The position numbers and the translations under genes are program-made. The notes under the pieces are model-generated. The model was not told the DNA's origin. It saw only the letters and a program-made list of their open reading frames with translations, and made no database searches. Below are positions 561 to 59,714 of a stretch of 64,000 bases of DNA, in pieces. Source of the DNA: Candidatus Latescibacterota bacterium (GTDB lineage: Bacteria; Latescibacterota; UBA2968); NCBI GenBank assembly GCA_965204745.1, contig OZ242010.1:288001-352000 (forward strand). Direction: 5' to 3'. How positions within the stretch are numbered: the stretch's first letter is position 1; the number at the start of each line of letters is the position of its first letter.

Positions 561-695
561 GATACCTCCTGTGTCGTTGTCAAGCCGCAACTCTGCTCAT
601 CCACCCTGCCGCCCGTGCGTGCCCGTCCCATCACCGCCCTACCGCAAGCCCTATCCCCAAGTAAGAGGCAAGAAGTAAGATACTCTCTTAAAAGG

Positions 696-1703
696 TCAAG
701 GGGTTTTCGGGGTGATTCGATAGAATTTCTCGCCCTCAAAATCTTGGTCATGCCGCAACATGCCCCAGATCGAATGGAGCAACTTTCGCATCACCGCAAC
801 GATAGCCTGCAAAGGTTTCTTGCCCCTGGCGATGAGTTTGTCATAAAAGGCTTTGACATGGACTTCGTGCCTGCAGGCCACCCAAGCAGGCATGTAGAGG
901 GCATGGCGGAGATATTTATTTCCGGTTTTCGAGATGCGTCTTTCCGGGTTGGCCATCCCGGATTGTTTGGGTTTGGGATCCAGGCCTGCATGAGCGACCC
1001 ATTGGGGCGGTTCCATCCCGTCTGGCAAGGAGGCCAGCTCGGCCAAGAGCCGCAAGGCACTCGTTTGGGCGATACCGGGCACCGAGCAGAGGTGCTGGTA
1101 GGCACGCTTTTGAGTCTCGTCCTGCAAAACGAGTTTGAGGGCTTGGTCTTCCAAGTAGGCAATGCGGCGTTTGAGGTGTCGAATATTCACCTGAATATCG
1201 CGTGTGATGAGGCGGGCACGCTTGACGGGGTAGTCCTGCGCGTGGTGCCGGTTCTGTTCTCGGCTGACCTCCTGTTTGAGTTGGTCAATGCGTCTGGTCA
1301 GCGTTTGCAGTTGCAGGACGTGCTCGCTCGGCACTTGCCAAGGCACAAAGGGCATGCGCTCGGCATCATCGAGGATCAACAACGCATCCTTCGCATCTGT
1401 CTTTGCCCGTTGCATGCAGGCTTGAGCGTACTTGCTCATCGCTTTGGGATTGACGACCATGACCTGCGTGCAGCGATGCTGATGCAAGGCCAAGGCCACC
1501 CCCAAGCTATAACGCCCGGTCGCTTCGAGACAGACCGAGACCATGCGCCCGCCCTTGGTGAGCCACTTCAACAGGTGCTTGTGCGCCCGAGGCGCGTTGT
1601 CAAAGGTGGCTTGCATGACCCCTTGTCCGGGTCTGGACAGGGCAACGGACAACGTGTGGGCACTGACATCAATGCCGGCAAAAGCGGGTTGAGTGTTCGA
1701 CAT
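696..1703 (-). CDS. IS110 family transposase/recombinase (DEDD RuvC-like + Transposase_20)
   Basis: GIDVS, CLEATG and KTDAKDA (DEDD); HAGLDP..KQSG (catalytic Ser region); ISKTGNKYLR; AVMRKL. 335 aa. Confidence 0.97.
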   Translation of the reverse strand: MSNTQPAFAGIDVSAHTLSVALSRPGQGVMQATFDNAPRAHKHLLKWLTKGGRMVSVCLEATGRYSLGVALALHQHRCTQVMVVNPKAMSKYAQACMQRAKTDAKDALLILDDAERMPFVPWQVPSEHVLQLQTLTRRIDQLKQEVSREQNRHHAQDYPVKRARLITRDIQVNIRHLKRRIAYLEDQALKLVLQDETQKRAYQHLCSVPGIAQTSALRLLAELASLPDGMEPPQWVAHAGLDPKPKQSGMANPERRISKTGNKYLRHALYMPAWVACRHEVHVKAFYDKLIARGKKPLQAIVAVMRKLLHSIWGMLRHDQDFEGEKFYRITPKTP

Positions 1704-1774
1704 CGGGGCCTCCTGTGATGAGGGGTGGGGAAGGGGTCTGGTGTGCGCTCGGGTTCGCGTCCCGACTGTTTGCC

Positions 1775-1950
1775 CAGTCTACCGGTCTTGTATATGCAGC
1801 CTCAATGGACTTAGATACTCTTCGGTATCAACTCGGCGGTCGGGGGGCCTATCTTACTTACAAGGTCATAGCCTTCAAGAGGCGCCGGCCTTCCCCGAGC
1901 AGGGCATCAAGATGGCGTGTCTCGATGCGAGGGCGCAACACCTAAATTAA
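1775..1950 (-). ncRNA. Putative bridge RNA of IS110 copy 1 (boundaries approximate)
   Basis: Guide segments in canonical 5'-3' order on the minus strand: LTG 1877-1884, RTG 1852-1859, LDG 1813-1821, RDG 1786-1793. Each pair flanks a small hairpin and is enclosed by an outer stem. Confidence 0.85.
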
Positions 1951-2050
1951 CCCTTTCTGACAACATACAAGAGGCGAGACCGGCCCACAACCCTACCTCC
2001 GCTTCATCGTTCCCCTGCGCTGTGTCCTCTGCACGCCCTGCCGCCATAGC

Positions 2051-2455
2051 CCTATCCCCCCGGCCCCGTTATTCGCTTCGCTCATTGTAGGCTACGCCTG
2101 TGCCTACAAGGAAAGGGGGAGCGCATGGCTTTCTTAAAGGTTTGTATCCCTGGCTGTTCTGATGGCTTTGAGCGAATGGATCATGCCATGAACCCCAAAA
2201 ACCTCTCATGCAAATCCCTCGCAAAACCTCTCGCTATTCCCCCCTTCCTCGCAAGACCTATCCCCCCGGCCCCCTTTCCTACAAGGAAAGGGGGAGCGCA
2301 TGGCTTTCTTAAAGGTTTGTATCCCTGGCTGTTCTGATGGCTTTGAGCGAATGGATCATGCCATGAACCCCAAAAACCTCTCATGCAAATCCCTCGCAAA
2401 ACCTCTCGCTATTCCCCCCTTCCTCGCAGGAAGGGGGGCTAGGGGGGTAGGTCCC
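2051..2455. repeat. Tandem pair of ~200-bp MITE-like repeat family A
   Basis: Two near-identical units (2051-2254, 2255-2455). Ends (GGA)CCTATCCCCCC...GGGGGGTAGGTCCC; sub-terminal hairpin CCCCCTTTCCT-ACA-AGGAAAGGGGG. Confidence 0.85.
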
Positions 2456-2464
2456 AATTCCGCC

Positions 2465-4768
2465 CTATTCATTCACAATTCGCGCGACCCAGATGCTGGC
2501 TTCGTATAAAACGACGAGGGGCAGGGCCATGAGAAGTTGGGACAGGGGATCGGGGGGGGTCAAAATGGCGGCGAGGACGAAGCCGATCAAAATCGCGTAC
2601 CGCCGTCCGGTTCGCATGCGGGAACTGGTGGCAATGCCCACCTTTGCCAAGAAGAATGTCACCACCGGCAATTCGAACACCAGCCCAAAAACCACGATGA
2701 GGCGCAACACGAAGCCGATGTACATGCCGATGTCGAATTGCGGCATCACGGCCGTATCAACCGTCATGCCCACGAAAAACGCGATGGCCAACGGGATGAC
2801 CAGCCAGTACGCCAAAACCGCACCCACGGCAAAACAAGCGGTGGAAGACGCGATCACAAAGGTGATGAACCGCCGCTCGCCTGCAAACAGGCCGGGGGAG
2901 ACGAAGATCCAGATTTGGTACATCAAAAAGGGCAGGGCGATAATCGCGCCGCCCACCAGCACGATTTCCAACTTGACCATGAACATGCCCATGGGCTTGA
3001 GGGTTTGCAACACGAGCGCGTTTTCCTCGGTTCGCGCCGGGTGGATCAGCAAGGCTAAGATGTCATTGACGAAAATCCCGCACGCGACCGCGCCTGCGAT
3101 AATCGCGCTCAACCCCTTGAGAATGCGCCACCGCAGTTCCTCCAAGTGATCGAGAAAGGGCATGGGCTTGCCGTCCTCTGGCAATTCCCGATCCGGCGGC
3201 GCTAGCGCGGGCACCGTGCCCTTGGGCCGCGCGCGCTCTTCGGCGGCTTTGTCGCGGCGGCGGATGAACGCGAGTGCCAAGCCCATCAGCGCGATCAGGC
3301 CGCACCCTTGTGCGAACAAATCCCCGAACCGCACATAGAGCGTCAGATCCTTGCGCGGCGCGATGGCGCGTTCTAAAACCGCCGTGTGAAACAGCCCGGT
3401 GTTTTGCCATTGCCGCCCGTGCGGATCGACGAATAAGGACATCCCGGTATTGGCACAGCGCACCACCCAACGCCGGTTTTCAATGGCCCTGAAGGTCGCT
3501 ATCGCCGCGTGTTGATACGGCGCGGAGGTGCGCTTGTACCACCCGTCATTGGTAATCACCACCAAGAACTCCGCGCCGTGCATCACCAGTTCTCGGGCGA
3601 GCCAAGGGAACGCGGAATCAAAGCAAATTACGCCGGAGAACCTTCCCCCCGGCACTGTGAAAACCGTGCGGTCAACCCCGCCTTCAAAATCCCCGCTGAC
3701 GTATCCCCCGCCGCTCCATCGAATATCGCGCAAGAACCCGAGCACCTCGGGAAATGGCGCGCGCTCTCCAAACGGCACGACCTTCACCTTGTCGTAATGC
3801 GGCAACTCGCCCCCACCCGGTTTGAACAAAAAGGACGAATTGTAATGCCGGTCTCGCGTTGCGGCTTCGTACCGGTTGGCCCCTGTGTACAGATAAATCC
3901 CCAGGGAATCGACCAATGCCTGCACGCGCGCTTGGTACGTAGCGTCGTGCCAGGGCCGATCGCTTTGCAAGTACGCGGGCACCGCGGCCTCTGACCACAC
4001 GATCAACCGCGCCCCTGTTTTTGCCGCGTCGATGGTCAGGGGTTTGAGCGCGTCAAAATTGTGGTCGAATCCCCAGTGCGATTTCTCGACCGGCGAGACA
4101 TTTTGTTGTACGATAGCGACGTTGAGATCGCCTTCTGCGAGGGGTTCTGATGCGCGCCACAAGCCGAATCCCAAAGGCGCTGCGAATGCCGAGACGAGCA
4201 CCCCGATCATGGGGCCGCGCCGCGCATTTCGGATGATCTCGTACGCGATGAGATTGACCACCACCACCCAAAACGACACGCCATAGACGCCCGTGACTTC
4301 GGCAATTTGGATCAGCGGCAAATAATCCACTTGGGAATGCCCGAGCACCATCCACGGAAACCCCATATCGCCGAGGGTGTTGAAATACTCAAACCCCACC
4401 CACGCGAAGGGCGTTAGCCACAGCCCCAGCCAGCCATAGCGCGCCCACATAGCGGACCACAAATAGACGAACAACCCCCTAAAAACCGCCATGTAAAAAA
4501 TGGCCCCGGCCATCCCCGGCGGCGTGATCCACGCGATCCAATAGATGGTCGCGCTGTAAAAGATGATGCCCTGCAAAAACCCCGCGCCAAATGCCACGCG
4601 GCCGCGCAGGTTCTCGGCAACCGGAATGAGGGGCAACAAACTGATGCACGCCAGAAACCCGAGTGGCAAGGGCGGAAATGCCGCGGCCATCAGCACGCCG
4701 GATAAGATGGGATAGCCGAGGGCCAACCTCCAACGCGATGTTTTGTCCTGTTTTGTTTTGTCTGCCAT
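2465..4768 (-). CDS. lnt-tatC: Apolipoprotein N-acyltransferase fused to TatC
   Basis: Lnt motifs (GFPW, WSE, YDK...VPFGE, ICFDS, TNDGW, RAIENRR, ANTG), then a Pro-rich linker, then TatC motifs (MPFLDHLEELR, PGL, FELP, TPPDPLSQ) in one 767-aa ORF. Confidence 0.92.
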   Translation of the reverse strand: MADKTKQDKTSRWRLALGYPILSGVLMAAAFPPLPLGFLACISLLPLIPVAENLRGRVAFGAGFLQGIIFYSATIYWIAWITPPGMAGAIFYMAVFRGLFVYLWSAMWARYGWLGLWLTPFAWVGFEYFNTLGDMGFPWMVLGHSQVDYLPLIQIAEVTGVYGVSFWVVVVNLIAYEIIRNARRGPMIGVLVSAFAAPLGFGLWRASEPLAEGDLNVAIVQQNVSPVEKSHWGFDHNFDALKPLTIDAAKTGARLIVWSEAAVPAYLQSDRPWHDATYQARVQALVDSLGIYLYTGANRYEAATRDRHYNSSFLFKPGGGELPHYDKVKVVPFGERAPFPEVLGFLRDIRWSGGGYVSGDFEGGVDRTVFTVPGGRFSGVICFDSAFPWLARELVMHGAEFLVVITNDGWYKRTSAPYQHAAIATFRAIENRRWVVRCANTGMSLFVDPHGRQWQNTGLFHTAVLERAIAPRKDLTLYVRFGDLFAQGCGLIALMGLALAFIRRRDKAAEERARPKGTVPALAPPDRELPEDGKPMPFLDHLEELRWRILKGLSAIIAGAVACGIFVNDILALLIHPARTEENALVLQTLKPMGMFMVKLEIVLVGGAIIALPFLMYQIWIFVSPGLFAGERRFITFVIASSTACFAVGAVLAYWLVIPLAIAFFVGMTVDTAVMPQFDIGMYIGFVLRLIVVFGLVFELPVVTFFLAKVGIATSSRMRTGRRYAILIGFVLAAILTPPDPLSQLLMALPLVVLYEASIWVARIVNE

Positions 4769-4871
4769 TACGGTAGGGGGAAGTCAGATAAATCTGTATT
4801 GCGAAAAGTACGAAGATTGCAGAATATAAATGAGGGTCAAATTTCTGTCAGCAAAAAAAGGGGTATCGCCC

Positions 4872-6044
4872 ATGTTGCCCGATCTCCGTTTTGAACTTCG
4901 CGCCTTGCACGCGCAAAATCTCTACCGCACCGTGCGCCGCGTGGAATCTTGCCAAGAACCCCGCATTCGCATGGACGGCCGGGAACTCGTGCTCTTTTGC
5001 ACAAACAACTATTTGGGCCTGGCCAACCATCCGGCCCTCAAACGCGCGGCCATTGACGCGGTCGCGGCGTACGGCAACAGCACCGCGGCGTCCGCGTTGA
5101 TTTCTGGCTATATGACCCCACACGCCGAACTCGAAGACCGCATGGCTCGGTTTTTGGGCACAGAAGCCGCGATTGCATTTCCCACGGGGTACACGGCCAA
5201 CCTAGGGGTTATTCCCGCGCTGATCGACCGCGACGACATCATCTTCAGCGACCGCTTGAACCACCGCAGCATCATCGACGGTTGCCGCTTGTCGCGCGCG
5301 CGCATCGCGGTCTATGACCATAGCGACATCGCCCACCTCGAATCCCTGCTCAAAACCGCGACCACCTATCGCCGCCGCCTCATCGTCACGGATGGGGTCT
5401 TTTCAATGGATGGGGACATCGCCCCCTTGCCGGAACTCGTCTCCCTCGCCGAACGCTATCGCGCCATCTTGATGGTGGATGATGCCCACGCGACCGGCGC
5501 GCTCGGCCCGCATGGCCGCGGCACCTTTGACCACTTTGGCCTGTCGCCCGCCGCGATTGACATTCACATGACCTCGGGTAGCAAGGCCCTGGGCGCGTCT
5601 GGGGGATTTATCTGCGGCAGCGAGGAGCTCATCGACCTGATTCGCAACCGATCCGCGGCCTATATTTACACGACCGCGATGCCGCCCGACGCCTGTGCCG
5701 CCACCACGGCCGCGCTCGACCTCATCCAACGCGATGCCAGTTCGCGCCACCGGCTTTGGCACAACGCACAACGCATCCGCGCCCGGTTGCAAGCGATGGG
5801 CTTTGACCTCGCGCCCTCGCAAACGCAGATCATGCCCTTGCACATCGGCGACGCGCAACAGACCGTTGCGATTTCCGAGTACCTGTACGCGCGCGGCATC
5901 TACCTCTACGGCATCCGCCCGCCCACCGTGCCCGAGGGCCAAAGCCGCCTGCGCCTCTCGGTGATGGCAACGCATACCGAAGACGACATGGCGCAGTTGT
6001 TCGACGCGCTGGCCGCGGCGCGCCGGGCGTTTTTTGTTCCATAA
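4872..6044 (+). CDS. bioF: 8-amino-7-oxononanoate synthase (class II PLP aminotransferase)
   Basis: FCTNNYLGLANHP, TGYTAN, SDRLNHRSIIDG, TDGVFSMDGD, DDAHATG, SKALG, IRPPTVP. Confidence 0.85.
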   Translation: MLPDLRFELRALHAQNLYRTVRRVESCQEPRIRMDGRELVLFCTNNYLGLANHPALKRAAIDAVAAYGNSTAASALISGYMTPHAELEDRMARFLGTEAAIAFPTGYTANLGVIPALIDRDDIIFSDRLNHRSIIDGCRLSRARIAVYDHSDIAHLESLLKTATTYRRRLIVTDGVFSMDGDIAPLPELVSLAERYRAILMVDDAHATGALGPHGRGTFDHFGLSPAAIDIHMTSGSKALGASGGFICGSEELIDLIRNRSAAYIYTTAMPPDACAATTAALDLIQRDASSRHRLWHNAQRIRARLQAMGFDLAPSQTQIMPLHIGDAQQTVAISEYLYARGIYLYGIRPPTVPEGQSRLRLSVMATHTEDDMAQLFDALAAARRAFFVP

Positions 6045-6065
6045 TGAGAGGCGGTCATCGTGATC

Positions 6066-6812
6066 ATGTCCAATACGCTCGACCACATCCGCATCGTCTT
6101 GGTCGAGCCCAAAGAACCCGGCAACATCGGCGCGGTGGCGCGGGCCATGAAAAATACGGGCCTGTCGCGCCTGTACCTCGTCAACCCGGCCGACCATACC
6201 AGCGGCGCGGCACGCGCCATGGCCCACGGCTCTGGCGATATCCTCTACGGCGCCACCGTCGTCTCCTGCCTGTCCGCCGCGCTGGAAGACGTGTCGCTCG
6301 CCGTGGGCACGTCCCATCGCAAACGCCGCGAATTTGACATCGTACACCCGCCGCAAATCGCTGTGGAAAAACTCTTGTCCCTGCCCGAAAATCACCTGGG
6401 CGCGCTCGTTTTTGGCCGGGAGGAAAACGGCTTGACCAATGACGAAATCCAGTTGTGCCAGATGATCTCGCGCATTCCCTCGGCCGTGCGCTATCCGTCC
6501 CTCAACCTATCTCAAGCCACCCTGATCTACGGGTACGAACTCTTTTGCGCGGCCCATTCCGAAACGCCCTACAAACCCGCCGCTTCGGATTTGGCGACCC
6601 ACCGCGAACTCGAATCCATGTACGACCACATGCAATCCGCGCTGGATAAACTCGGCTTTGTCTCGCGCCACCGCCCGCAGACCTTCATCCGCTCCATCCG
6701 CCGAATTTTCAACCGCATCGACATGGAACACCGAGACGTGGCGACCGTCCATCGCCTCTTTCGCCAGATAGACCGCTTCGTCGCCCGGCATGGGTTGGAT
6801 GAGGAGCAGTAG
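6066..6812 (+). CDS. trmJ: SPOUT RNA methyltransferase, TrmJ/LasT family
   Basis: IVLVEPKEPGNIGAVARAMKN, VFGREENGLTNDE, YPSLNLSQA. Start could be 6060-6066. Confidence 0.9.
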   Translation: MSNTLDHIRIVLVEPKEPGNIGAVARAMKNTGLSRLYLVNPADHTSGAARAMAHGSGDILYGATVVSCLSAALEDVSLAVGTSHRKRREFDIVHPPQIAVEKLLSLPENHLGALVFGREENGLTNDEIQLCQMISRIPSAVRYPSLNLSQATLIYGYELFCAAHSETPYKPAASDLATHRELESMYDHMQSALDKLGFVSRHRPQTFIRSIRRIFNRIDMEHRDVATVHRLFRQIDRFVARHGLDEEQ

Positions 6813-6893
6813 TCAGTAGTCAGTAGTCAGTAGTCAGTAGTCAGTAGTCAGTAGTCAGTAGTCAGTAGTCAGTAGTCAGTGGTCAGTGGTCAG
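6807..6893. repeat. Heptamer tandem array (CAGTAGT)10(CAGTGGT)2
   Basis: Directly visible; overlaps the trmJ stop codon. Confidence 0.97.
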
Positions 6894-7003: not shown

Positions 7004-7006
7004 ATC

Positions 7007-8544: not shown

Positions 8545-8580
8545 TCAAGTCTGCAATAAATCCAAGCCCGCAGTGGTTGA

Positions 8581-25469: not shown

Positions 25470-28400
25470 ATGAAATCACTTCTTCGGTTCGCCTTGCCAA
25501 GTGTGTTGGGCATCGCGTTGCTCTGCGGCGCGTCTATCGCACAGGCTTCTTCGCCATCCGCAGAGCGCGAGGTGCATGTTTGCAAAGTTCTCGATTACGA
25601 AGCCATGCGAGCACGCGATAGCCTGTACGCCGCACGCAAGCAGGCGTTTAACCTAAATGTCGGCGCGCCACACACGGTTCGGATGATCTACTTCTTGCCC
25701 AATGACCGGCCGTTTCGCCAAGAAGTGGTCGATTCGATGAAAACGACGATCCGCCAGATTCAGACTTTTTTCCGCGATCAGATGCGAGCACATGGACATG
25801 GGGCGCTGACCTTTCGCTTTGAAACCGATGCCCAAGGCGACCCGCTGGTTCACCGCGTAGATGGGCAACATCCCGATAGCCGCTACATTTACGACACGCT
25901 CACTGCGTTTGACGAGGTTGGAATGGCATTTGATATCTGGAACAATGTTTATCTCATCGTCGTTGACAATAGTGTAGATGCAATTGTCTTGGATGGTTTC
26001 GTTGTGGCAGGCGTGGCCACGGGTGAAAGAAATGGTGGCCATACATTGGTTCCTGGGGGATTTCACTGGACTGTCGCCACCCATGAACTTGGACATGCTT
26101 TCGGATTGAAACACGATTTCAATAATGATGCGTACATCATACCGGCCAAGCCAATTATCCACATGCCATGCCGAATATTTGTCCATGCATCCCTTCTTCA
26201 ATGCCGCTATTCCAGACGTAGCGACATCGCTACCGACTATCGAACTCATTTCATCGCCTTTCTATTCGGCAGACGCAAAAAGCGTTTCTATCCGACTCAG
26301 AGTTGGCGCCCCAAATGGACTTCATCAAGTAATCCTAGGCGTTTACCCAAGAATCTTTGGAACAGGTGAGTTGAAGGCATGTCGCGAATTAAATGGCGAA
26401 AGGGATGCTGTAGTTCAATTCGATTATGATGGCGTTATTCCAGGTGATAGAAACTCAAATCTCTTGAATCCCCACACGAATCGGTTTTATGCCGTGGTCG
26501 TTGATATTTTTGGATATATAAAGGTAACGGAGTCAGATTTTTCTTGCGCGAATTGTCCGATATCGCTGACAAAAATCGCAGGCGACAACCAGCAAGGCCG
26601 CCCCGGTGAAACCCTGACAAATCCTCTGGCCGTTGCCGTGAGGGATAAAGACAGGGTTGGGCTACAAGGTATGCCGATCAAGTTTTCTATCACCTCAGGC
26701 GAGGGAGAGCTCGGAGGTAGGTTCACTACGGAGAACGCAACCACCGATGCCAATGGCAGAGCGCGAAGCAAGCTCACACTGGGGCCAAATTCGGGCACAA
26801 ACACGATTGAGGCAACGACCACTGGGCTTAAGGTGACTTTTAATGCTCGGGGTATCGGAACACCTACGACACCGATTCCAGCGATCAATTATCAGACGGC
26901 GCATTTACCCGATGGCGCGATGGCGCGCTTGGGAAAAGGGAATTTGAGTGAAAGCGATAGAGCAGTTGCATTTTCGCCGGATGGGCAACTCTTCGCGGTG
27001 GCAAGTGGCATTGGCGTTTGGCTTTATGACGCGACGACTGCTCGTGAACTCGCGTTGCTCACCGGGCACTCAAACCGATCTATTTCCGTTTCGTTTTCCC
27101 CCGACAGCAGAACGCTCGCGTCAGGCTCAGGGGATGGAACGGTCAAACTATGGGATGTGGCAACGAGACAAACTATCGCCACGCTGACGGGACATACTGA
27201 TTTTGTCACTTCTGTTGCATTTTCGCCCGATGGAACCACCCTCGCGGTTGCTGGAGCAAGGGATAGAACGGTCGAGTTGTGGGATGTGGCGACGAGACAG
27301 ACTATCGCCACGCTGACGGGACATACTGATCATGTCACTTCCGTTGCATTTTCACCCGATAGCAGAACCCTCGCATCAGGCTCATGGGATAGAACGGTCG
27401 TGCTGTGGAATGTGGCGACGAGACGGACTATCGCCACGTTGACAGGACATACAGATCATGTCACTTCCGTTGCGTTTTCACGCGATAGCAGAACCCTCGC
27501 GTCTGGCTCATGGGATAGAACGGTCAAGTTGTGGAATGTGGCGACGAGACGAACTATCGCCACGCTGACGGAACAAAAAAATAATGTCACTTCCGTGGCA
27601 TTTTCACGCAATGGAACAACCCTCGCGTCCGGCTCATGGGAGGAGGTCAAGCTGTGGGATGTAACAACGAGACAAAACATCGCCACGCTGACGGGACATA
27701 CAGATTTTGTCACTTCCGTTTCGTTTTCCCTTGATGAAACAACCCTCGCGTCCGGCTCAAGGGGGGAGGTCAAGCTGTGGGATACCAAGACAGAAAATAA
27801 TGTCACACGCAGTCATACGAGCAATGTCACTTCTGTTTTGTTTTCTCCTGATGGAGCAACCCTCGCGTCCGGCTCATGGGATAGAACGGTCAAGTTGTGG
27901 GATGTGGCGACAAGACGAACCAACGCCACGCTGACAGGACATACAAGTCAGGTCAATTCCATTTCATTTTCACGCGATGGCAGAACCCTCGCGTCCGGCT
28001 CATGGGATGAGATCAAGCTGTGGGATGTGGCAACGAGACGGACTATCGCCACGCTTGCAGGGGCGGGATCTTCCGTTTCGTTTTCTCCTGATGGGGCCAC
28101 CCTCGCGTCCGGCTCATGGGAGGAGATCAAGTTGTGGGATGTGGCGACGAGACGGACTATCGCCACGCTGACAGGACATACAGATCATGTCAATTCCGTT
28201 GCATTTTCCCCTAATGGAACAACCCTCGCGTCTGGATCGGGAGATAGAACGGTCAGGCTGTGGGATGTGGCAGCGAGGCGAACTATCGCCACGCTGACAG
28301 GACATACAAATCAGGTCAATTCCGTTTCGTTTTCCCCCGATGGAACCACCCTCGCGTCCGGCTCATGGGATGAGATCAAGTTGTGGGATGTAGCGACGAG

Positions 28401-28836
28401 ACAGACTATCGCCACGTTTGAACAGGTGAGCTCTTCCGTTTCGTTTTCCCCTGATGGGGCCACCCTCGTGTCAGGCTCATGGGCGGGGATCGAGTTGTGG
28501 GATGTGGCAACGAGACAATCCATCGCCACGCTGACAGGACATACGAGCAATGTCACGTTTTCCCCCGATGGTAGAACGCTTGCTTCGGGGTCGGATAATG
28601 GCACGGTGTTGCTATGGGATATATCGCCGTATGCCACATCTTCCTCGTCACTGACGCCGGATTTCAATGGCGATGGGCGGGTCAATTTCCCCGACTTTTT
28701 GTTGTTCGCCGCGCAATTCGGATTGCGTCGCGGCGACGCGAGCTACGATGCGCGGTTCGATTTGGATGGCGATGGCACAATCGGCTTCGGCGATTTCCTG
28801 CGCTTCGCCCGCGCCTTCGGCCGGGAAGGATCATGA
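25470..28836 (+). pseudogene. Frameshifted secreted protein: zinc metallopeptidase + Big/invasin-like + WD40 repeats + dockerin/EF-hand-like tail
   Basis: Signal peptide and HELGHAFGLKH in one frame. The other frame from ~26135 carries KIAGDNQQG/TDANGRA, about 13 WD40 repeats and DFNGDGRVNFPDF/DLDGDGTIGFGDF. Confidence 0.8.
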
Positions 28837-37523: not shown

Positions 37524-37746
37524 CCACGAGCGGGGTACAACTGGCGACAGCCAGTTCAAAGGCACAAAAGGGGAGAGGCAAGAGGGGTACATGGCGACAG
37601 CCAGTTCAAAGGCGAGCCGTGAGTGTAGGTCTTCTCCCCTCTTGCCTCTCACCTCTCACCTTTTTAGGCGATGCCCCCGTGCTCGCCCAAAGATACAAGA
37701 TGCAGTTGTCAGTTGTCAGCGGTCAGTTGTCAGTCCCCGCCTCCAC
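37505..37746. repeat. Composite intergenic repeat (family B, family D empty IS110 target, REP-like, heptamer tail)
   Basis: Reverse-complement match to 8649-8800. 37628-37649 equals the reconstituted target of IS110 copy 2. Confidence 0.82.
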
Positions 37747-51420: not shown

Positions 51421-51473
51421 AAAAAAACGGACGAGAAACCTCCCGCCCGAATATCCCTAAATGTCTATGTGAG

Positions 51474-51766
51474 GGGACCTATCCCCCGGCCCCGTTATTC
51501 GCTTCGCTCATTGTAAGGCTACGCCTGTGCCTACGAGGAAAGGGGAGCGCATGGCTTTCTTAAAGGCTTGTATCCCTGGCTGTTTTGATGGCTTTGGGCG
51601 AATGGATTACGCCATAGAAACCCAAACCCCCTTATACAATCCCCTCGCAAAACCGCTCACAGTTCCCCCCTTGTATCTTAGGGCGAGCACGGGTGCATCG
51701 CCCCTTTGGAGGGGTGGAAGGGTGGGGACTGACAACTGACAACTGACAACTGACAACTGACAACTG
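51474..51766. repeat. Family A copy + REP-like hairpin + (ACTGACA)5 tail
   Basis: Similarity to 2051-2254, followed by GGGCGAGCACGGGTGCATCGCCC and heptamers at 51728-51766. Confidence 0.85.
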
Positions 51767-51780
51767 CATCTCACCTCGTT

Positions 51781-53658
51781 CTATTCCGCAATTTCTCTGA
51801 CGCGAATGCGCGTGCCAGGGCGCAAGCGAGACGGGCTTTGAATGCCATTCATGGATTTCAGGGCTTCAACGCTCGTATCAAAAGCGCGGGCAATTTCCCA
51901 CAGGGTATCGCCTGTGCGCACGGTGTAAAAGACGGGCGAATCCGAGGTGCCATCTTTGGGCAACCAAAGGGTGAGGCGGTCGCCCGGGTGAATGGGGCGA
52001 TGGGTATTGAGATCGTTCCACGCGCGTAGGTGCGAAACCGTGATGCCCTCGCGTTTGGCAATTTCCCACAGGGTATCGCCTGCGCGCACGGTGAGGTTGA
52101 CTTGGCGATAGTGCTCGGGGTCGGGCGTGAGGTCGATGGTTTTTCTGCGGCTGGCTGTACGAGATGAGTATTGCGCGCTGGGATACAGTGGAACAGTGAG
52201 TTTTTGACCGATTTGCAACCTGCGCGGATTGGCGATGCCATTGGCCTCTTTGAGCGCGGATTGCGATATTCCCATGTCAGCCGCGATCTCGGACAGGGTA
52301 TCCCCGCGTTTGACCACGTAATCGACCATCTGAATTTTTTTGTGCGCGGGTATTTGGGCGTAATTAGCCCTAAATTTCGCGGCCGCGCCCTTGGGCACGC
52401 GCAACGCATAAGGGGTTCGGCGCGTTGCAGGCGGCGTGTACGCGCGGCGCAGGTCCGGGTTGAGTTGGCGCATCCAGGCGTAGGTCGTGCCCGCGCACTC
52501 TGCGGCCAAGCGCAGGGATATGGGTTCTGTCAGCGCGACCTTGTCATGCGATAGGGCGGGTTGATAGACGATATTTTCAAAGCCAAAAAACCCCGGGTCT
52601 TTCGCCATGATAACCGCCGCCATGAACTTGGGTACATGATTGCGGGTTTCTCGGGGCAGCGCGTGGATTTTCCAAAAATCCCGGGTCTTGGATTTTGCGA
52701 TGGCGCCATCCATGCGACCCTGCCCGCAGTTGTACGCCGCGACAACCAACCGCCAATCGCCAAAGTATTGGTAGAGGTGCGTGAGATGTCGCGCAGCCGC
52801 GCGGGTGGCTTTTTCCGGATCCATGCGATCATCGCGGTACGTATTGCGCCGCAGGCCATAGAGCAAGCCCGTGCGGTACATGAATTGCCACATGCCCAAG
52901 GCCCGCACACGCGACTGCGCGCGCGAGTTAAATCCGCTCTCGACCAGGGCCTTATACGCGAGGTCTTGGGGCAGGCCATAGTCGCGGAAAGCCGAGTGGA
53001 TCATCGGCAAATAGGCGGTGGAGCGCGACAGGCAGAGCGCGAAAAACTCGCGCTTTTCCGTTTGGAAATAGCGGATATAAGCCAAGACTTCGGGCGTGAG
53101 GTCTATCGGCACATCGGCCTGCCCGGCCAGCACCCTCATTTTGAGCTCCCGAAAGTGCGGATGGCGCGACAAGTCCGCGGCAACCGCTTCGGGCAGGGCA
53201 TCGATCAACAATGCCACGGGCGCGTCCGGCGATATGGGCACGCGGGGCAGAATCGCGTGGTAGTGTTCGAGGGTAAAACGCGCCAGCGCGGCCCATTCTT
53301 TGGCTGTTTTCAGCGAGGGATTGGGGACGAACCGCTCGCGCAAGGTGCGGGCTATCGCGTCGAGTTGTGCGCGTGTTTGCGCGGATGGCCGTTTGACCTG
53401 TTGCAACATGTCGTAGAGCGGGTCGCTAGCCGCGACCTTTGTCTGCGTGATGGGTTCTGCTGTGACGGGTTCTGTTGTGACGGGGACTGCGACTTCTGCG
53501 ACGGGTTCGGGCATGGCTGGAACCGCCGGGGCGCGCACAGTCGTCGTGGCGCATCCCCCGGAAATCAGGGCCGCGATCAAACACAACTTGGGCCGCAGGG
53601 ATGGTTTCGCGTTACTGGGCAGGAGTTGCCTGTACGATGAATGCCGTTTCATAGCCAA
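51781..53658 (-). CDS. MltD-like lytic transglycosylase with three LysM domains
   Basis: VESGF, ALGMWQFM, AAYNCG, ETRNHVPK, and three GDTLxxIA repeats. Confidence 0.92.
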   Translation of the reverse strand: MAMKRHSSYRQLLPSNAKPSLRPKLCLIAALISGGCATTTVRAPAVPAMPEPVAEVAVPVTTEPVTAEPITQTKVAASDPLYDMLQQVKRPSAQTRAQLDAIARTLRERFVPNPSLKTAKEWAALARFTLEHYHAILPRVPISPDAPVALLIDALPEAVAADLSRHPHFRELKMRVLAGQADVPIDLTPEVLAYIRYFQTEKREFFALCLSRSTAYLPMIHSAFRDYGLPQDLAYKALVESGFNSRAQSRVRALGMWQFMYRTGLLYGLRRNTYRDDRMDPEKATRAAARHLTHLYQYFGDWRLVVAAYNCGQGRMDGAIAKSKTRDFWKIHALPRETRNHVPKFMAAVIMAKDPGFFGFENIVYQPALSHDKVALTEPISLRLAAECAGTTYAWMRQLNPDLRRAYTPPATRRTPYALRVPKGAAAKFRANYAQIPAHKKIQMVDYVVKRGDTLSEIAADMGISQSALKEANGIANPRRLQIGQKLTVPLYPSAQYSSRTASRRKTIDLTPDPEHYRQVNLTVRAGDTLWEIAKREGITVSHLRAWNDLNTHRPIHPGDRLTLWLPKDGTSDSPVFYTVRTGDTLWEIARAFDTSVEALKSMNGIQSPSRLRPGTRIRVREIAE

Positions 53659-53784
53659 CTTTCACCTCTTCGAAAAATTTTTCCGCGTCTTCGTGCGGTT
53701 GGAAATTGCCAACGCACACCTTTTCGGCTTTCACTTTAAGAACGCCCGCGGGATTTGTCAATCAATTTGTGATAAATCAGTGGG

Positions 53785-54822
53785 TTATTGCCCAAACCAC
53801 TGTGCGAATGTCTCCGCGTAATCGCCTTTTGCAATGCCCTTCTCCGTGATGATCGCGGTGACGAGGTGGTTGGGAGTCACGTCGAAGGCGGGGTTGTACA
53901 CTCGAATGCCGTCGGGCGCGGTTTGCCTGCCCATGCCACGGGTGATTTCCTCGGTTGCGCGTTCTTCAATGGGAATTTGCATGCCGGTGTCGCGTTTCAT
54001 GTCGATGGTGGAGAGCGGCGCGGCCACGTAAAAGGGGACTCGGTGCACATGGGCCAACAGGGCGAGGCCGTACGTGCCGATTTTGTTGCCGACATCTCCG
54101 TTTTTGGCAATGCGATCCGCGCCGACGACCACGCTGTCGATGTTTTTGTCGCGCAACACGGTGGCGGCCATGCTGTCGCAAATGACCGTGACATCCACCC
54201 CACTCTGGTTCAGTTCCCACGCGGTCAGGCGCGACCCCTGCAACAGAGGACGGGTTTCGTCCGCATAGACCGCGACCTGCTTGCCCGCTTCGACCGCGGC
54301 GTACACCACGGCTAAGGCAGTGCCGTAGTCAGCAGTGGCCAAGCCGCCGGCATTGCAGTGGGTCAGGACCGTGGCACGCGGGGACAGCAACTCTGCGCCA
54401 TAGCGGCCAATTTGGCGGCAGATGCGCTTGTCGTCTTCAAAAATCTCATGGGCTTCTTCGAGCAACAGGGCGCGTTTTTCAGCGGGTGAACGCCCCGCGG
54501 CTTGGGCGAGCACTTTTTTTTGTCGGTCGAGTGCCCAAAAGAGGTTGACGGCTGTGGGCCGGGTTTGCGCGAGTTTTTGAATGCACTCGGCGACATGGCG
54601 ATCAAAATCGGCCCCCTGTGCAATCGCCTCTTGCGCGGCAATGACGACCCCATAAGCCGCTGCCACGCCAATGGCAGGCGCGCCGCGCACGCGCAAACTG
54701 ACGATGGCTTCTGCCGCGGTTTCGACATCTCGGCAAACGATGAATTGGTACGCTTCGGGCAATAGGGTTTGGTCGATGAGGCGCAGCGCGTCATCTTCCC
54801 AAGTGAGGGTTGGAACGGGCAT
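53785..54822 (-). CDS. mtnA: S-methyl-5-thioribose-1-phosphate isomerase
   Basis: VRGAPAIG, RPTAVNL, THCNAG, ETRP, GADRI, NKIGT. Confidence 0.96.
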   Translation of the reverse strand: MPVPTLTWEDDALRLIDQTLLPEAYQFIVCRDVETAAEAIVSLRVRGAPAIGVAAAYGVVIAAQEAIAQGADFDRHVAECIQKLAQTRPTAVNLFWALDRQKKVLAQAAGRSPAEKRALLLEEAHEIFEDDKRICRQIGRYGAELLSPRATVLTHCNAGGLATADYGTALAVVYAAVEAGKQVAVYADETRPLLQGSRLTAWELNQSGVDVTVICDSMAATVLRDKNIDSVVVGADRIAKNGDVGNKIGTYGLALLAHVHRVPFYVAAPLSTIDMKRDTGMQIPIEERATEEITRGMGRQTAPDGIRVYNPAFDVTPNHLVTAIITEKGIAKGDYAETFAQWFGQ

Positions 54823-54843
54823 GGGTTCTCCAATGCTTACGGG

Positions 54844-55209
54844 TCAAGTGTCGGTCGGGCCGCGGTCTTCAACGCGCTCGATGGGCGCGTCTCCCCACAG
54901 GCGTTCCAAGCCGTAAAACTGGCGCGATTCCGCCTGAAAGATGTGGACGATGATATCGACAAAATCGATCAGCACCCACTTTCGCGTGTCGTATCCCTCG
55001 ACGTGATAGGGCGGCTGCCCCCGCGCTTTGAGACGCTGGATCACCGCGTCTGCCAATGCGCGAACATGCACGTCTGAAGTCCCGGTGCAGATGACAAAAT
55101 AATCGACAAAGTCGGCGGTGTTGTGCAGGTCGATCACGACGATGTCTTGGGCTTTGCGCGAAAGCAACTGTTCAATGCAGGCACTGCGAATCATCTCGAT
55201 ATCTGACAA
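54844..55209 (-). CDS. rsfS: Ribosome silencing factor
   Basis: KAQDI, DYFVICTG, WVLID, FYGLERLW. Confidence 0.96.
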   Translation of the reverse strand: MSDIEMIRSACIEQLLSRKAQDIVVIDLHNTADFVDYFVICTGTSDVHVRALADAVIQRLKARGQPPYHVEGYDTRKWVLIDFVDIIVHIFQAESRQFYGLERLWGDAPIERVEDRGPTDT

Positions 55210-55221
55210 GGCGACCTCCTT

Positions 55222-55635
55222 CTATTTCCAGATCTCCAACCTATCGTAATCGCGTCCGATGATGATGGTCACTTCCTCGAGGCGATAGGTGTCGGGGGTT
55301 TTTTGCTGGATGACATTGGGCGTGCCGATGAGGGCGGCGACTTGTCGGGCGTATTCTAGTTTGCCGATGCGATCCATGACAATGGTCTCGGCAAAGTTGA
55401 AGTTTTCCGCATTGCCCATGGTCATGACGTCAACGCCAAAGTCGCGCAGTTTTTTCCCGATCTGACCCGCGAGCCCGCCCGTGCCGCATCCATTGAGGAT
55501 TTCCACGCGGATATTGTGCGCGATTTGCGGCGCGGGCCGCGGCGGTGGCGGTGGCGATTGCCAAAAAGCGGTTGCCGCAAAGACGATCAGCCCGGCGATG
55601 ATGAGGCCGCCGAGAACCCATACCCAACGTTTCAT
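55222..55635 (-). CDS. LytR C-terminal domain protein
   Basis: TM anchor; VEILNGCG..GLA; IIIGRD. Confidence 0.85.
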   Translation of the reverse strand: MKRWVWVLGGLIIAGLIVFAATAFWQSPPPPPRPAPQIAHNIRVEILNGCGTGGLAGQIGKKLRDFGVDVMTMGNAENFNFAETIVMDRIGKLEYARQVAALIGTPNVIQQKTPDTYRLEEVTIIIGRDYDRLEIWK

Positions 55636-55704
55636 ACTGCGAAATATAAGCAAAAAAAAAAGAGACGCCAACCTTAGGCGCCTCTTTTTGCCGCTGCTGC
55701 GCGT

Positions 55705-56160
55705 TCAATAGCGTCTGTATGGATCGCGGTAGTAATAGGGATAGCCATTGAAGGTGCTGAATCCAAATTCGATGCGGAGATTGGGCTTGGGCTGGTACAA
55801 GAGGCTGACATTGGGAACCACGACTCGCACGCCGCCCGAAGAGGTCGAGCCGTAGCGCGCATTGCCCGACATGTTGTTGACCAAGCCGACCTGCGCCTTG
55901 ATGACGAGCGGTTTGGAGACTCGATAGGTGATGTCGTTGAGATAGTACTGGCGCAGGCCGCCGCCGTATCCCGAACCGTAGCTGATGCCAATGGTGTGGT
56001 TGAAGTTGAGCTTTTTGAGGTCGAACAATCCGCTGGTGATTTTGCCTGCACGTGCAAATGCCTCGTTGAGCGGGATTTTGCTCTGCGGCTGAATGCCGAT
56101 TTCCGCCCGCGCCCCCGTCGCCATCAAGACCACAACTGCCAATGCAATCCATCTGTACAT
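55705..56160 (-). CDS. Secreted hypothetical protein
   Basis: GGAGG RBS; signal peptide ending ARA. Confidence 0.7.
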   Translation of the reverse strand: MYRWIALAVVVLMATGARAEIGIQPQSKIPLNEAFARAGKITSGLFDLKKLNFNHTIGISYGSGYGGGLRQYYLNDITYRVSKPLVIKAQVGLVNNMSGNARYGSTSSGGVRVVVPNVSLLYQPKPNLRIEFGFSTFNGYPYYYRDPYRRY

Positions 56161-56336
56161 GTGAAACCTCCTTTGATTGGAAATAGCCGTTGACCTGTGC
56201 TGTGAAGCAACATGATACATCGATCAAACCGAACTGTCAAGTTACGTCTTGCGTCTTATGTCTTGCATCTCACCTTTTCATATCGTAAATTTGACCCTCC
56301 CAAGTCGCAACACACACTTTTTAGGAGACGACGACG

Positions 56337-57164
56337 ATGGCACTTCAATCTAATGGGGCTGTTCTTTCGGATGAACAGCGCGAATTTTTTGACGCCAATG
56401 GGTATCTCGTCATCGAAGACGCGCTGCCCCCGGATGTCGTTGCGGAACTCGACGCGGCGGTCGATGAAATTTACGCCCGGGAGAAAGCCGCGAATCGCTT
56501 GGAGAAAAATGGCAAGCTCAATTTGCGAAATTGCATCGTGCATCACGATGCGTTTCTCCAACTGCTCGACTGGCCGACCACCGCGCCCTTGGCGTGGCAG
56601 ATCCTCAACTGGAACATCCAGATGATCACCTCGCACCTCATCGTGTTGCCCTCCGGCCCAGAGCCATCCGCAGAGGAAAAGCGCAGGGGCGGGTATCACC
56701 GCGATGGCGGGTCTTCTTCTCGGGAAATGACCGAACCCCATCCGCGCATCCTCCTCAAAATCGCATACACCATCAGCGACCAGCGCGATCCCGCGTCCGG
56801 AGCCACGCAACTCGTGCCGGGAAGCAATCGGCTGTGGGGCCGTCCGGCCATCGATCCGGCAACGGGCCATCCGCGCGGGGCCATCGACATGAATGTCAAA
56901 GCCGGCTCGGCATTCATCTTTGAACAGCGCACCTATCACGGCATTGGCAAGAACTGGTCGGGGTTCCCGCGCAAGACCATTTTCATGGGCTATGCGTATC
57001 GCTGGGTCAAACCGATGGACTACATCCACATGCCCGACGACCTCCTCGCCCGCGCAACTCCCATTCAAAAACAACTCTTGGGCGCGGTGTCCGACCCGCT
57101 CAGTTTTTACATCCCACAAGCGCGAGACGTGCCCATCAAAGCACTCGTCGAAGATGGGGTGTGA
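56337..57164 (+). CDS. PhyH-family Fe(II)/2OG dioxygenase
   Basis: FDANGYL, HRD, VPGS, distal His (RTYHG). Confidence 0.9.
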   Translation: MALQSNGAVLSDEQREFFDANGYLVIEDALPPDVVAELDAAVDEIYAREKAANRLEKNGKLNLRNCIVHHDAFLQLLDWPTTAPLAWQILNWNIQMITSHLIVLPSGPEPSAEEKRRGGYHRDGGSSSREMTEPHPRILLKIAYTISDQRDPASGATQLVPGSNRLWGRPAIDPATGHPRGAIDMNVKAGSAFIFEQRTYHGIGKNWSGFPRKTIFMGYAYRWVKPMDYIHMPDDLLARATPIQKQLLGAVSDPLSFYIPQARDVPIKALVEDGV

Positions 57165-57206
57165 GTGTGAATCAACGAAAATTTTCACCCCCACAGATAG
57201 CGGTTC

Positions 57207-57450
57207 ATCCGCGCAGTACGTCGGGTTTTGGAGCGGTTGGGGGCCTCTCACGTCTTCCTTCTTCCCTCTTACCGAAAGGGGGCGAGCACGGGGGCACCGC
57301 CCCTACACACACTGCTCGCCTTTGAACGGGCTATCGCCTTTTGTGCCTTTGAACTGGCTATCGCCAGTTGTACCCCGCTCGTGCCTTTTGTGGCTAACCC
57401 CCATCTCCCATCTCCCGTCTTACCTCTTACCGAAGGGGGCGGGCGGGGGC
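57207..57450. repeat. Composite intergenic repeat (C + REP-like + B + heptamers)
   Basis: Shares modules with 8661-8840 and 39976-40010. Confidence 0.8.
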
Positions 57451-57457
57451 AGAGAGA

Positions 57458-59158
57458 TCACTCATCCGTCACGCACCCTTCGGACGCGGTTTTCACGTTC
57501 TTGATGTACTTGTAAAGCGTGCCGCGCGTGGCTTTGTAAGGCGGTGGCGTCCACGCCGCGCGGCGTCTTGCGAGTTCTGCGGCTGAGACATCCATGTTGA
57601 TTTCCCCATTTTGGCTGTCGATAGTGACGGTATCCCCGGTTTGCACCAAGGCGATAGGCCCGCCTTCAATGGCTTCCGGGACGACGTGGCCGATGAGAAA
57701 GCCGTGCGATCCACCGGAAAACCGCCCGTCCGTAATCAGCGCCACATCTTGCACCAAGCCCGCGCCTGCCAGTGCGGAGGTGGGCGTGAGCATCTCCGGC
57801 ATGCCCGGCCCGCCTTTGGGGCCTTCGTAGCGGATGATGATCACATCGCCTTTTGCGATCTCGCCCTGTTCGAGCGCGCCGAGCATGTCCTCCTCGCAAT
57901 CGAATACATTGGCCTTGCCCGTGAACACTTCGCCCTCTTTGCCCGTGATTTTGCCAACCGAACCCTCGGGCGCCAAATTCCCGCGTAAAATTTGCAGGTG
58001 TCCCGTGGGTTTGATGGGGTCGTCAAAGGGCCGCACGATGTCTTGCTGCCCGCGGCCCGTGCCGTACGGGGGAAGCGAGGCGAGGTCCGCGAGATTTTCC
58101 GCGATGGTCTTGCCGGTCACGGTCATTTGGTCGCCGTCGATGAGGCCCGCGTCGAGCAAGCGTTTCATCATCGCAGGCGTGCCGCCGATGTCGTGGAGTT
58201 CTTCCATGACGTAGCGGCCCGAGGGCTTGAGGTCGCACAACAGGGGCGTTTCATTGGATACGCGCTGAAACTCGTCGATGTCCAAATCGAGGTCAAACGC
58301 GCGTGCAATAGCCAAGAGGTGGAGCACGATATTGGTCGATCCCCCCGTGACAACCGCGAGGCGAATGGCGTTGAGCAGGGATTGTTTGGTGACGATGTCG
58401 CGCGGTTTGAGGTCCGTTTCGAGCAAGGCGCGAATCGCATGCCCCGCGCGAACGCATTCGGCGCGTTTGCCCGGATCTTCGGCCGGCGTGCAGGAGGAAT
58501 AGGGCAAGGAGAGGCCCATGCACTCAATCGCACTCGCCATGGTATTGGCCGTGTACATGCCGCCGCACGCCCCCGCGCCCGGGCAGGCGTGTTCCACGAT
58601 CTCTTGGCGTTCCTCATCGCTGATCGATTCCGCGAGAAATTCCCCGTAGCTCTGAAAGGCGGATACGATGTCGAGTTTGCGCTCCTCGCCCCGAATGATG
58701 GCGCAACCGGGTTTGATCGTCCCCCCGTAGATCATCAGCGCCGGGCGATTGAGCCGGCCCATGCCCATAATCACGCCGGGCATGTTCTTGTCGCAACCGG
58801 GCAATGCGATGAGCGCGTCATACCACTGCGCGCCCATGACGGTTTCGATAGAGTCCGCGATCAAGTCGCGCGATTGCAGGGAAAACGACATGCCATCCGT
58901 CCCCATTGAAATGCCATCTGATACGCCAATCGTATTGAAGCGCATCCCAATGCACCCGGCCTCGCCAACGCCCTTTTTCACGTCAGCCGCCAAGTCGTTG
59001 AGGTGCATGTTGCACGAATTGCCCTCGTACCACACCGATGCAATGCCGACCTGCGCTTTGTCCATATCCTCGCGCGTCAGGCCCGCGGCATAGAGCATGG
59101 CCTGAGACGCGCCTTGGGATTTTTTTTGCGTGATCTGCGAGCTGTACAAATTCAACAT
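57458..59158 (-). CDS. ilvD: Dihydroxy-acid dehydratase
   Basis: [44 protein letters not shown]; start MLNLYSS after GAAAGGAAG. Confidence 0.96.
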
Positions 59159-59570
59159 CGAAACTTCCTTTCTAAAAGGGCGAAACAAGAGATCCACGAA
59201 GAACGCGCAGGGCGAGAAGAAATGCGAAACGCAAGACAAGGCGGTGGAGATGGCGTCAAAGATAGAAGCCATTAAGGCGGCGATTGAAGCCCTGCCCGAA
59301 GTGGACGAAGATATTGCGCGTGAAAATGTTCGCGGTTTTATTCGCAAATAACGACCAGCGTATTCTGAAAATGCGGTTCCCGCCTTCCACTCTTGCACAA
59401 AGCCATCATCGTCACCGCAACATCCGACGTGAAGGACTTTGTGATTAGGTTGCAGGTAGTTCAGAATGCAGTCAACGCGATTCATTGTTTTTCCGTGGTT
59501 GGACAGATGCCTCGTCATCCGCGTTTATCTGTGTTTATCGGTAGTTGCCTTTCGCCTTTTCGCGTCTTCA

Positions 59571-59714
59571 GGCGAGCACGGGGACATCGCCCCTACGTTT
59601 CTATCCTTGCCTCTCGCCTCTCGCCTCTTACTTCTTGCCTCTTACCGAAGGGCGGTTAGGCGGGGCGGACTGACAACTGACAACTGACAACTGACAACTG
59701 ACAACTGACAACTG
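59571..59714. repeat. REP-like hairpin + TCTNNNN array (empty IS110 copy-1 target) + (ACTGACA)6
   Basis: 59619-59645 is an exact 27-bp match to the reconstituted target of IS110 copy 1. Confidence 0.88.

Follow-up and report, generated by a model that had tools for sequence, protein, structure and literature searches.

IS621-like IS110 elements with predicted bridge-RNA guides that match junctions of tandem CT-rich heptamers in a Candidatus Latescibacterota genome

Introduction

The insertion sequence (IS) IS621 of the IS110 family encodes a recombinase with two characteristic domains as well as a bridge RNA, the latter from its long left end (PMC11208160; PMC11208158). As described for IS621, this RNA has two internal loops in which the left guides correspond in sense to the top strand and the right guides are its complement; the left target guide (LTG) pairs with the bottom strand and the right target guide (RTG) with the top strand, and the CT core takes part in all four pairings (PMC11208160). 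The same account places a -35 box in the right end, gives the target guides as 9 nt on the left and 4 nt (extendable to 7) on the right, and names a dispersed host repeat, the repetitive extragenic palindromic (REP) element, as the natural target (Durrant et al., 2024; PMC11208160). Here, we describe two IS110-family elements, hereafter copies 1 and 2, in a 64,000-nt stretch of a Candidatus Latescibacterota genome, together with their relatives in the same genome. The stretch, hereafter the window, comprises positions 288,001-352,000 of a single-contig 5.48-Mb metagenome-assembled genome (MAG) with 56.5% G+C. Coordinates of copies 1 and 2 and of their targets are window positions, and names beginning with c are genome copy names. 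These are very probably IS621-like elements whose target loop is programmed for the junction between particular CT-rich heptamer units.

The elements agree with the IS621-like group in every feature that could be examined, namely both recombinase domains, a long left end that specifies the predicted RNA, two internal loops with the same guide senses and strand pairings around a CT core, and a dispersed host repeat as target. A -35-like hexamer in the right end is a further point of resemblance. They differ from IS621 in that the protein is only distantly related (phmmer E-value 3e-32), the target is a junction within tandem, non-palindromic 7-bp repeats rather than a REP hairpin, the target guides are 8 nt each with a 4-nt overlap (TCTT), and several guide variants coexist in one genome. 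In Pseudomonas putida, the multi-copy IS110 elements ISPpu9 and ISPpu10 are likewise described as confined to one conserved intergenic repeat family (PMC12288879). Their targets are given as REP-type with a stem-loop that adds specificity (10.64898/2026.03.19.712850), and no such structure is evident in the CT-rich arrays found here.

Two other known groups were considered and rejected. In the IS1111 group, a long right end downstream of the recombinase gene encodes the guide RNA, and the ends carry sub-terminal inverted repeats; in 2024, Siddiquee et al. reportedly found that seekRNAs of this group guide the same recombinase superfamily to a repeated target. The elements in the window have a right end of about 15 nt and a structured RNA upstream of the gene, and do not belong to it. 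Short tandemly repeated repetitive (STRR) heptamers form intergenic tandem 7-bp arrays in heterocystous cyanobacteria, with several unit families per genome. Tandem heptamers are present here too, but the host is a Latescibacterota and the unit sequences differ. The term STRR-like, used in the original prediction for this locus, is a description and not a membership, and nothing points to a common origin. The closest public relatives of the genome are chromosomes labelled as Latescibacterota MAGs, and the stretch itself is found in sponge and marine metagenome runs.

Element Anatomy and Predicted Bridge RNA

Copy 1 (680..1969, minus strand) has a body of 1290 nt flanked on each side by one CT core (AG on the plus strand, 678-679 and 1970-1971). 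Its recombinase gene (696..1703, minus strand) encodes 335 amino acids plus a stop codon and contains the two IS110 Pfam domains, DEDD_Tnp_IS110 (1.4e-24) and Transposase_20 (3.1e-19), both above the curated cut-offs. Sequence matches in the Protein Data Bank were the ISCro4 transposase (phmmer, 2.2e-35) and the IS621 transposase (3e-32), and the motifs GIDVS, LEAT, KTDAxDA, and SKxG are kept in the alignment to ISCro4. Between the element end and the start codon lies a noncoding left end of 265 nt (1704-1969, minus strand), and the right end extends about 15 nt beyond the stop codon. Copy 2 (43836..45126, minus strand) has a body of 1291 nt and a recombinase gene (43852..44859, minus strand) that also encodes 335 amino acids plus a stop codon.

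The left end of each copy contains a predicted bridge-RNA core (copy 1: 1765..1904; copy 2: 44923..45062; both on the minus strand), with a target-binding and a donor-binding stem-loop in copy 1. We aligned 12 such sequences from nine genomes (two lie in the window, three belong to two sister species, and seven to Latescibacterota genomes that are more distant). The consensus has two stem-loops whose internal loops hold all four guide segments, and compensatory changes were found in 11 of the 28 consensus base pairs. In copy 1, the LTG CGCCTCTT (1877..1884, minus strand) has the same sense as the left flank plus core, and the RTG AAGTAAGA (1852..1859, minus strand) is the reverse complement of TCTTACTT, the core plus right flank; neither shows a mismatch. 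The donor guides equal the element's own ends: the left donor guide (LDG) AGAGTATCT (1813..1821, minus strand) is identical to the last right-end bases plus core, and the right donor guide (RDG) ATACAAGA (1786..1793, minus strand) is the reverse complement of TCTT+GTAT, where the left end starts. The corresponding segments of copy 2 are located at 45035-45042 (LTG, CCCCTCTT), 45010-45017 (RTG, AGGTAAGA), 44971-44979 (LDG), and 44944-44951 (RDG), all on the minus strand.

The right end of copy 1 also contains TTGACC, a -35-like hexamer (694..699, minus strand). In a circle with joined right and left ends (RE-LE), TTGACC would lie 18 nt upstream of TATCTT in variant A or TATGTT in variant B (the variants are defined below). 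The RE-LE junction may rebuild a split promoter for the bridge RNA, resembling the one described for IS621 (PMC11208160).

Copy Number and Relatedness of the Elements

By blastn, we found 52 full-length and 20 partial copies in the genome, and 51 of the full-length copies have an intact 335-codon frame. One group of 30 copies has identical bodies, and so has a second group of eight; the two groups share their guides and are 96% alike. Copy 2 belongs to a 37-copy cluster with a mean identity of 99.9%, and guide variant A, to which it is assigned, totals 45 copies. The B lineage has five copies, including copy 1, which are about 88-89% identical to the variant A groups, and the remaining two copies are singletons (c1296945 and c602691). 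CT was found directly outside both ends in all 52 copies, and there is no target-site duplication beyond CT. The flanks beyond the arrays differ between all copies. Two full copies of subtypes A1 and A2 lie head to tail at genome positions 1,121,590-1,124,180 with a gap of 7 nt, which reads TACCTCT in the orientation of the elements, and the site of the second copy is partly made by the flank of the first.

Correspondence Between Guides and Flanks

In the left end, two short segments vary between variants inside an otherwise conserved scaffold. The first octamer corresponds to left flank, core, and one further base, and the second to the reverse complement of one base, core, and right flank. 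The variant A segments lie in the contexts GGCCGG-CCCCTCTT-GAAGGC and CCTTGT-AGGTAAGA-TAGGCC, and its guides read CCCCT-CT-TACCT, i.e., [TCT]CCCC/TCTTACC/T, with slashes marking unit boundaries. Variant B guides, as in copy 1, read CGCCT-CT-TACTT, i.e., [TCT]CGCC/TCTTACT/T, and those of variant C, a singleton, read TCCCT-CT-CACCT, i.e., [TCT]TCCC/TCTCACC/T. The guide segments of the singleton c1296945 are TCCCTCTC and AGGTGAGA. The original prediction that each variant reads a different heptamer pair thus holds, in that the two 8-nt segments differ between variants and match the flanks of their own copies.

For quantification, the 52 junctions were aligned on the element ends. The LTG has no mismatches in 43 copies and the RTG none in 45, with U:G allowed; within variant A, the left guide is perfect in 39 of 45 copies and the right guide matches in 41 with rU:dG allowed. 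Among the seven non-A copies, own guides fit better than those of variant A in five; the two tie in c1306975 (one mismatch each), and own guides fit worse in c602691 (four mismatches vs. three). Across all 52 copies, guide-flank mismatches total 43, compared to a mean of 65 and a minimum of 50 when guide pairs were shuffled, and none of 10,000 shuffles reached 43. By eye, the guide octamers changed at 2-3 of 16 positions against a divergence of 4-12% for the element, which is too few positions for a test of enrichment.

Heptamer Arrays and Site Occupancy

Arrays were defined as (TCTNNNN)>=3+TCT, and full-length IS110 copies were excised in silico before arrays and occupancy were counted. In this IS-free genome, we found 595 TCT-phase arrays with a total length of 24,339 bp (0.45% of the genome), compared to none in a shuffled genome, so the matches are not those expected by chance. 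The restored insertion sites of 48 of the 52 copies lie inside such arrays, and at least three in-phase CT units span the junction in 51, which bears out the original prediction that these elements target a heptamer family. Register and orientation with respect to the repeat are the same for all insertions. By a crude measure, 23% of the arrays vs. 72% of the whole genome is covered by the distal parts of long open reading frames (ORFs), and the arrays in the window fall in gaps between long ORFs. This crude measure is also the basis for regarding the arrays as a possible safe harbour in which insertions would be harmless.

Genome-wide, a further 300 arrays (12.6 kb) belong to another heptamer family, ACTGACN (N = A, C, or T); in the window, examples are found at 6807-6893, 40016-40046, 46166-46196, 51728-51766, and 59669-59714. 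None of the 52 IS110 copies lies in an ACTGACN array. The pattern ACTGACN x3 has 1204 matches in this genome vs. 0-62 in the other 20 genomes of the genus. Arrays of the TCT and ACTGACN types often adjoin (e.g., 59606-59714 and 37633-37734) with a G-rich spacer such as GAAGGGCGGTTAGGCGGGGCGG between them, and an ACTGACN array occurs within 50 bp of 85 of the 595 TCT arrays, compared to seven on random placement.

The TCT arrays contain 3,817 in-phase unit junctions of 691 kinds, and their occupancy falls as guide fit worsens. The junction CCCCTCTTACCT, a perfect match to the variant A guides, is occupied at 20 of its 24 occurrences; CCCCTCTTGCCT, which requires one rU:dG wobble, at 17 of 73; and TACCTCTTACCT, with two left-arm mismatches, at 4 of 83. 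The commonest junction, TGCCTCTTGCCT, is occupied at none of its 227 occurrences. Perfect and wobble A-type junctions constitute 2.54% of the 3,817, yet hold 37 of the 45 variant A copies (binomial 1.7e-51).

Variant B sites, [CT]GCCTCTTACTT, have 47 unoccupied occurrences. Most of them fall within a dispersed composite repeat with about 30 loci, in its heptamer core of 3-4 units, which explains the many 40-nt perfect matches of the copy 1 flank. In the window (641-680 and 1970-2040), this composite repeat has conserved arms, …GAACGATGAAGCGGCGGTAGGGCGGTGGG… and …TTGGGGATAGGGCTTGCGGTAGGGCGG…, around 3-4 heptamers, and it is often followed by a GGTAATCCGCGCAATCCCCTAATCCG… module.

Unoccupied Targets in the Window

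The original prediction described empty sites for both copies, and all the match coordinates it gave were exact. The 27-mer restored by excision of copy 1 has its reverse complement at 59619..59645 (an unoccupied variant B target on the plus strand), where the 12-mer CGCCTCTTACTT occupies 59622-59633 inside a heptamer array; this 27-mer occurs six times in the genome. A second unoccupied B-type 12-mer, TGCCTCTTACTT (659..670, minus strand), lies 14 nt from the right end of copy 1. The restored site of copy 2 matches 37628..37649 over 22 nt in minus-strand orientation, and the unoccupied variant A wobble target annotated there on the plus strand contains CCCCTCTTGCCT at 37636-37647; another such target lies at 37576-37587 (minus strand). 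Further matches to the copy 2 site, of 17 nt each, are found at 45301-45317, 48298-48314, and 48312-48328. The first of these is in the heptamer/14-mer array that adjoins copy 2 (45147..45317, plus strand), with an unoccupied A wobble target at 45304-45315, and the other two are in a heptamer array (48289..48346, plus strand) with unoccupied A wobble targets at 48301-48312 and 48315-48326. Near c3304733 (genome position 3,304,804), as near copy 1, an unoccupied perfect target is located 14 nt from the occupied one.

Unoccupied targets are therefore present as predicted. However, they are paralogous loci and not demonstrated alleles or excision scars, because the 27-mer reflects the dispersed family of about 30 loci with the same heptamer order. 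Insertion polymorphism, for which split reads had been proposed as a check, was examined at copy 1 in the Logan contigs of four runs from four studies. A joint that skips exactly 1292 nt (four ambiguous letters), i.e., the empty site of copy 1, was found in two of the four runs, with shorter sides of 19 and 33 letters. Over about 64 nt, the reconstructed copy 1 site has the same sequence as an unoccupied paralogue near genome position 2,082,458, so the joint is not assignable to one locus and does not demonstrate polymorphism. At a neighbouring copy (genome positions 285,1xx-286,4xx), contigs depart from the reference and rejoin at the right junction in all four runs, with a different sequence in between; their sides of 20-29 letters lie in repeats, so this does not demonstrate polymorphism either. 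The depth of words from the IS body relative to the flanks varied widely between runs, and this depth does not equal copy number, nor is a bin without cover evidence of absence.

Related Elements in the Phylum

Recombinase relatives at E<=1e-40 were found in 12 of the 168 genomes of the phylum, including this one (G000). OZ251458.1 (G091) has 18 loci with 74% protein identity and the guides TCGCCTCT / TCTCCC, and 17 of the 18 copies are at array junctions of the TCTCGCC/TCTCCCG type; the exception is L009. OY282377.1 (G082) has seven loci with about 80% identity and the guides TCCYCCTT / TCTTTTCT, which agree with the flanks; none of the seven is in a heptamer array, and this genome has no match to the TCTNNCC x3 pattern. 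The same pattern has 652 matches in G000 and 256 in G091, compared to 0-2 in each of the remaining 19 genomes of the genus, among them G082. The more distant relatives in G041, G097, G101, G120, G128, G151, and G152 keep the RNA scaffold but have other guides and non-repeat flanks, so heptamer targeting is a reprogramming of a conserved machine in array-bearing genomes. In G041 (L031-L033), two of the three copies have AT at the left junction and CT at the right one, and …GCGCAT forms the end of the left guide; judged from these sequences, the core in this genome may be non-CT or mixed.

Proposed Mechanism and Alternative Explanations

The anatomy of the elements, the complementarity of guides to flanks and to element ends, the specificity statistics, and the recurrence in a sister species are the observations behind our reading, and the mechanism is the known bridge-RNA one. 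Each element encodes a DEDD/serine recombinase, and its long left end specifies a predicted bridge RNA that has two internal loops. One of these, the donor loop, would pair with the element's own joined ends; the other, the target loop, would pair with the two strands of a host site of 12 nt that has the CT core at its centre. The RNA would be made, and a circular intermediate would carry the rebuilt promoter. The site recurs many times in the arrays, in near-identical and mostly intergenic copies, and this probably allowed variant A to amplify recently to its 45 copies, nearly exhausting its perfect sites, and then to spread to sites with one U:G wobble or with a match in one arm. Copies that fit their guides poorly would have been placed by the RNA of another variant acting in trans.

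A contrary view of the arrays is that the element itself produced them, as footprints or end-derived duplications or through IS-driven amplification, and that they were not there beforehand as a target. In its favour, the two genomes with heptamer-guided IS110 elements (G000 and G091) are the only ones of the genus in which TCTNNCC arrays are abundant. However, this origin is very improbable, because most of the 595 arrays have no copy against only 52 elements, the ACTGACN family was amplified in the same genome without an IS110 copy inside, and small TCTNNCC arrays are present elsewhere in the phylum, in families that lack a recombinase relative at E<=1e-40. Moreover, the element ends share only TCTT with the arrays, and IS110 recombination is described as scarless (PMC11208160). 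It is also highly unlikely that the preference for arrays is set by the protein or by DNA structure, such as slipped or non-B DNA at tandem repeats, and that the guide matches are incidental. A structure encoded in the target is described to add specificity for ISPpu10 (10.64898/2026.03.19.712850), but the CT-rich arrays are non-palindromic, the equally abundant ACTGACN arrays contain no copy, the commonest TCT junction is unused while the guide-matching junction is 83% occupied, and guides and flanks covary both within the genome and across three species.

The depletion of arrays from long ORFs, crude as that measure is, could also be expected if insertion were random or weakly specific and selection had removed all copies but those in harmless intergenic repeats. 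Yet long ORFs, measured in the same crude way, leave about a quarter of the genome uncovered, whereas the insertions are concentrated in 0.45% of it, in one register and one orientation and with a CT core every time. In addition, the groups of 30 and eight identical copies indicate that the insertions are too recent for much purging, which leaves this explanation exceedingly improbable. A metagenome-assembled single contig is error-prone in repeats, and for this reason copies arising by segmental duplication or as an assembly artefact were considered as well. This is extremely unlikely, given that the flanks beyond the arrays differ at every copy, that the same architecture is found in two other independently assembled chromosomes, and that the IS body is present at high word depth in public contigs of four other studies.

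Several points weigh against guidance by bridge RNAs as proposed here. The copy statistics count insertions and not independent evolutionary events, since copies share descent. The bridge RNA is a prediction from sequence, and no RNA run is among the recorded runs that contain the stretch. An Rfam covariance-model scan of copy 1 gave only chance-level scores (E 2-8), far below the gathering scores. No circle (RE-LE) junction was seen in the public contigs of four runs, which is a poor test. Four of the 52 sites fall outside the strict array definition and sit in 2-3-unit heptamer runs. Lastly, 10 of the 52 copies fit their own guides imperfectly. These comprise four A copies with a perfect right arm and two left-arm mismatches, two A copies on CCCCTCTCCCGT with three right-arm mismatches and one left mismatch just after the core, one A copy with a right-arm change beyond wobble, two B copies with one mismatch each, and the singleton c602691, which has B-like guides with 2+2 mismatches and sits on the site of variant C. 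Such copies need extra assumptions.

Guide Variants and Misfit Copies

Most simply, the misfit copies can be explained by the RNA of another variant acting in trans, by insertion with a match in one arm, or by later gene conversion. Action in trans is possible because the donor ends are common to the variants, and half-match insertion was recently described for IS621 (10.64898/2026.08.31.748434). Two partial copies carry a right guide for TCTCCCGT, the exact site of the two odd A copies, and one partial copy has the left guide loop GCCCCCCTT. The GCCCCCCTT fragment is one of four old fragments inserted directly after ATTCCCCCT in a non-heptamer dispersed repeat, a 17-mer of which occurs 46 times. 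These partial-copy guides indicate that at least five guide variants have existed in the genome, namely A, B/B2, and C, together with two extinct variants: E, which would read ...TCTCCCGT, and F, which would read the non-heptamer dispersed repeat.

Taken further, one IS110 lineage may have radiated within one genome into at least five guide variants, most of them reading different junctions of one repeat family, with target supply now limiting the spread of the dominant variant, point mutations in the guides favoured, and misfit copies placed in trans or by half-match. We consider this scenario plausible but tentative, and somewhat less probable than its absence. Niche partitioning among variants, which the original prediction suggested as an evolutionary reading, would agree with the filling of 20 of the 24 perfect variant A sites, with site classes that differ between variants, and with at least five guide variants in one genome. 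If the scenario is correct, the 83% use of perfect sites would mean that target supply, rather than transposase activity, limits the dominant variant, and point mutations in the guide octamers would be favoured for opening fresh site classes, a form of target-space partitioning. The genome would then be a natural record of bridge-RNA mismatch tolerance, in which rU:dG is tolerated at a single position of the right arm and insertion on a match in one arm is rare.

Novelty and Implications

Relative to the literature we found, what is new is the target in tandem non-palindromic heptamers, the coexistence of guide variants, and the near exhaustion of perfect sites. A full-text search for papers that link IS110 to heptamer, STRR, or simple-sequence-repeat terms returned none; the search did not cover the supplementary target-motif tables of Durrant et al., which might list such targets. 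Short tandem heptamer arrays would extend the list of repeats that serve as IS110 landing pads, which includes REP elements and transposon ends; attC sites are also known as such landing pads.

Bridge recombinases are under development as programmable genome editors, and natural guide drift and in vivo mismatch tolerance are known mostly from Escherichia coli screens of IS621. Available here are 52 young insertions, a full census of 3,817 candidate junctions, several coexisting variants, and two related species, one as a replicate and the other as a contrast. With these, the relation of occupancy to guide fit forms a natural dose-response, and one or two substitutions in the guides provide a case of retargeting.

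Other Repeats in the Window

A perfect 175-bp tandem duplication (1.9 copies) at 2103-2428 contains a dispersed repeat, …CCTCGCAAAACCTCTCGCTATTCCCCCCTTCCTCGCAGG…, a near-identical copy of which is the insertion site of four old IS110 fragments (genome positions 921772, 1263487, 1433018, and 2089406). Elsewhere in the window, a repeat with a period of 126 bp and 12 copies (27084-28556) lies inside a 903-codon ORF and may encode WD40-type repeats.

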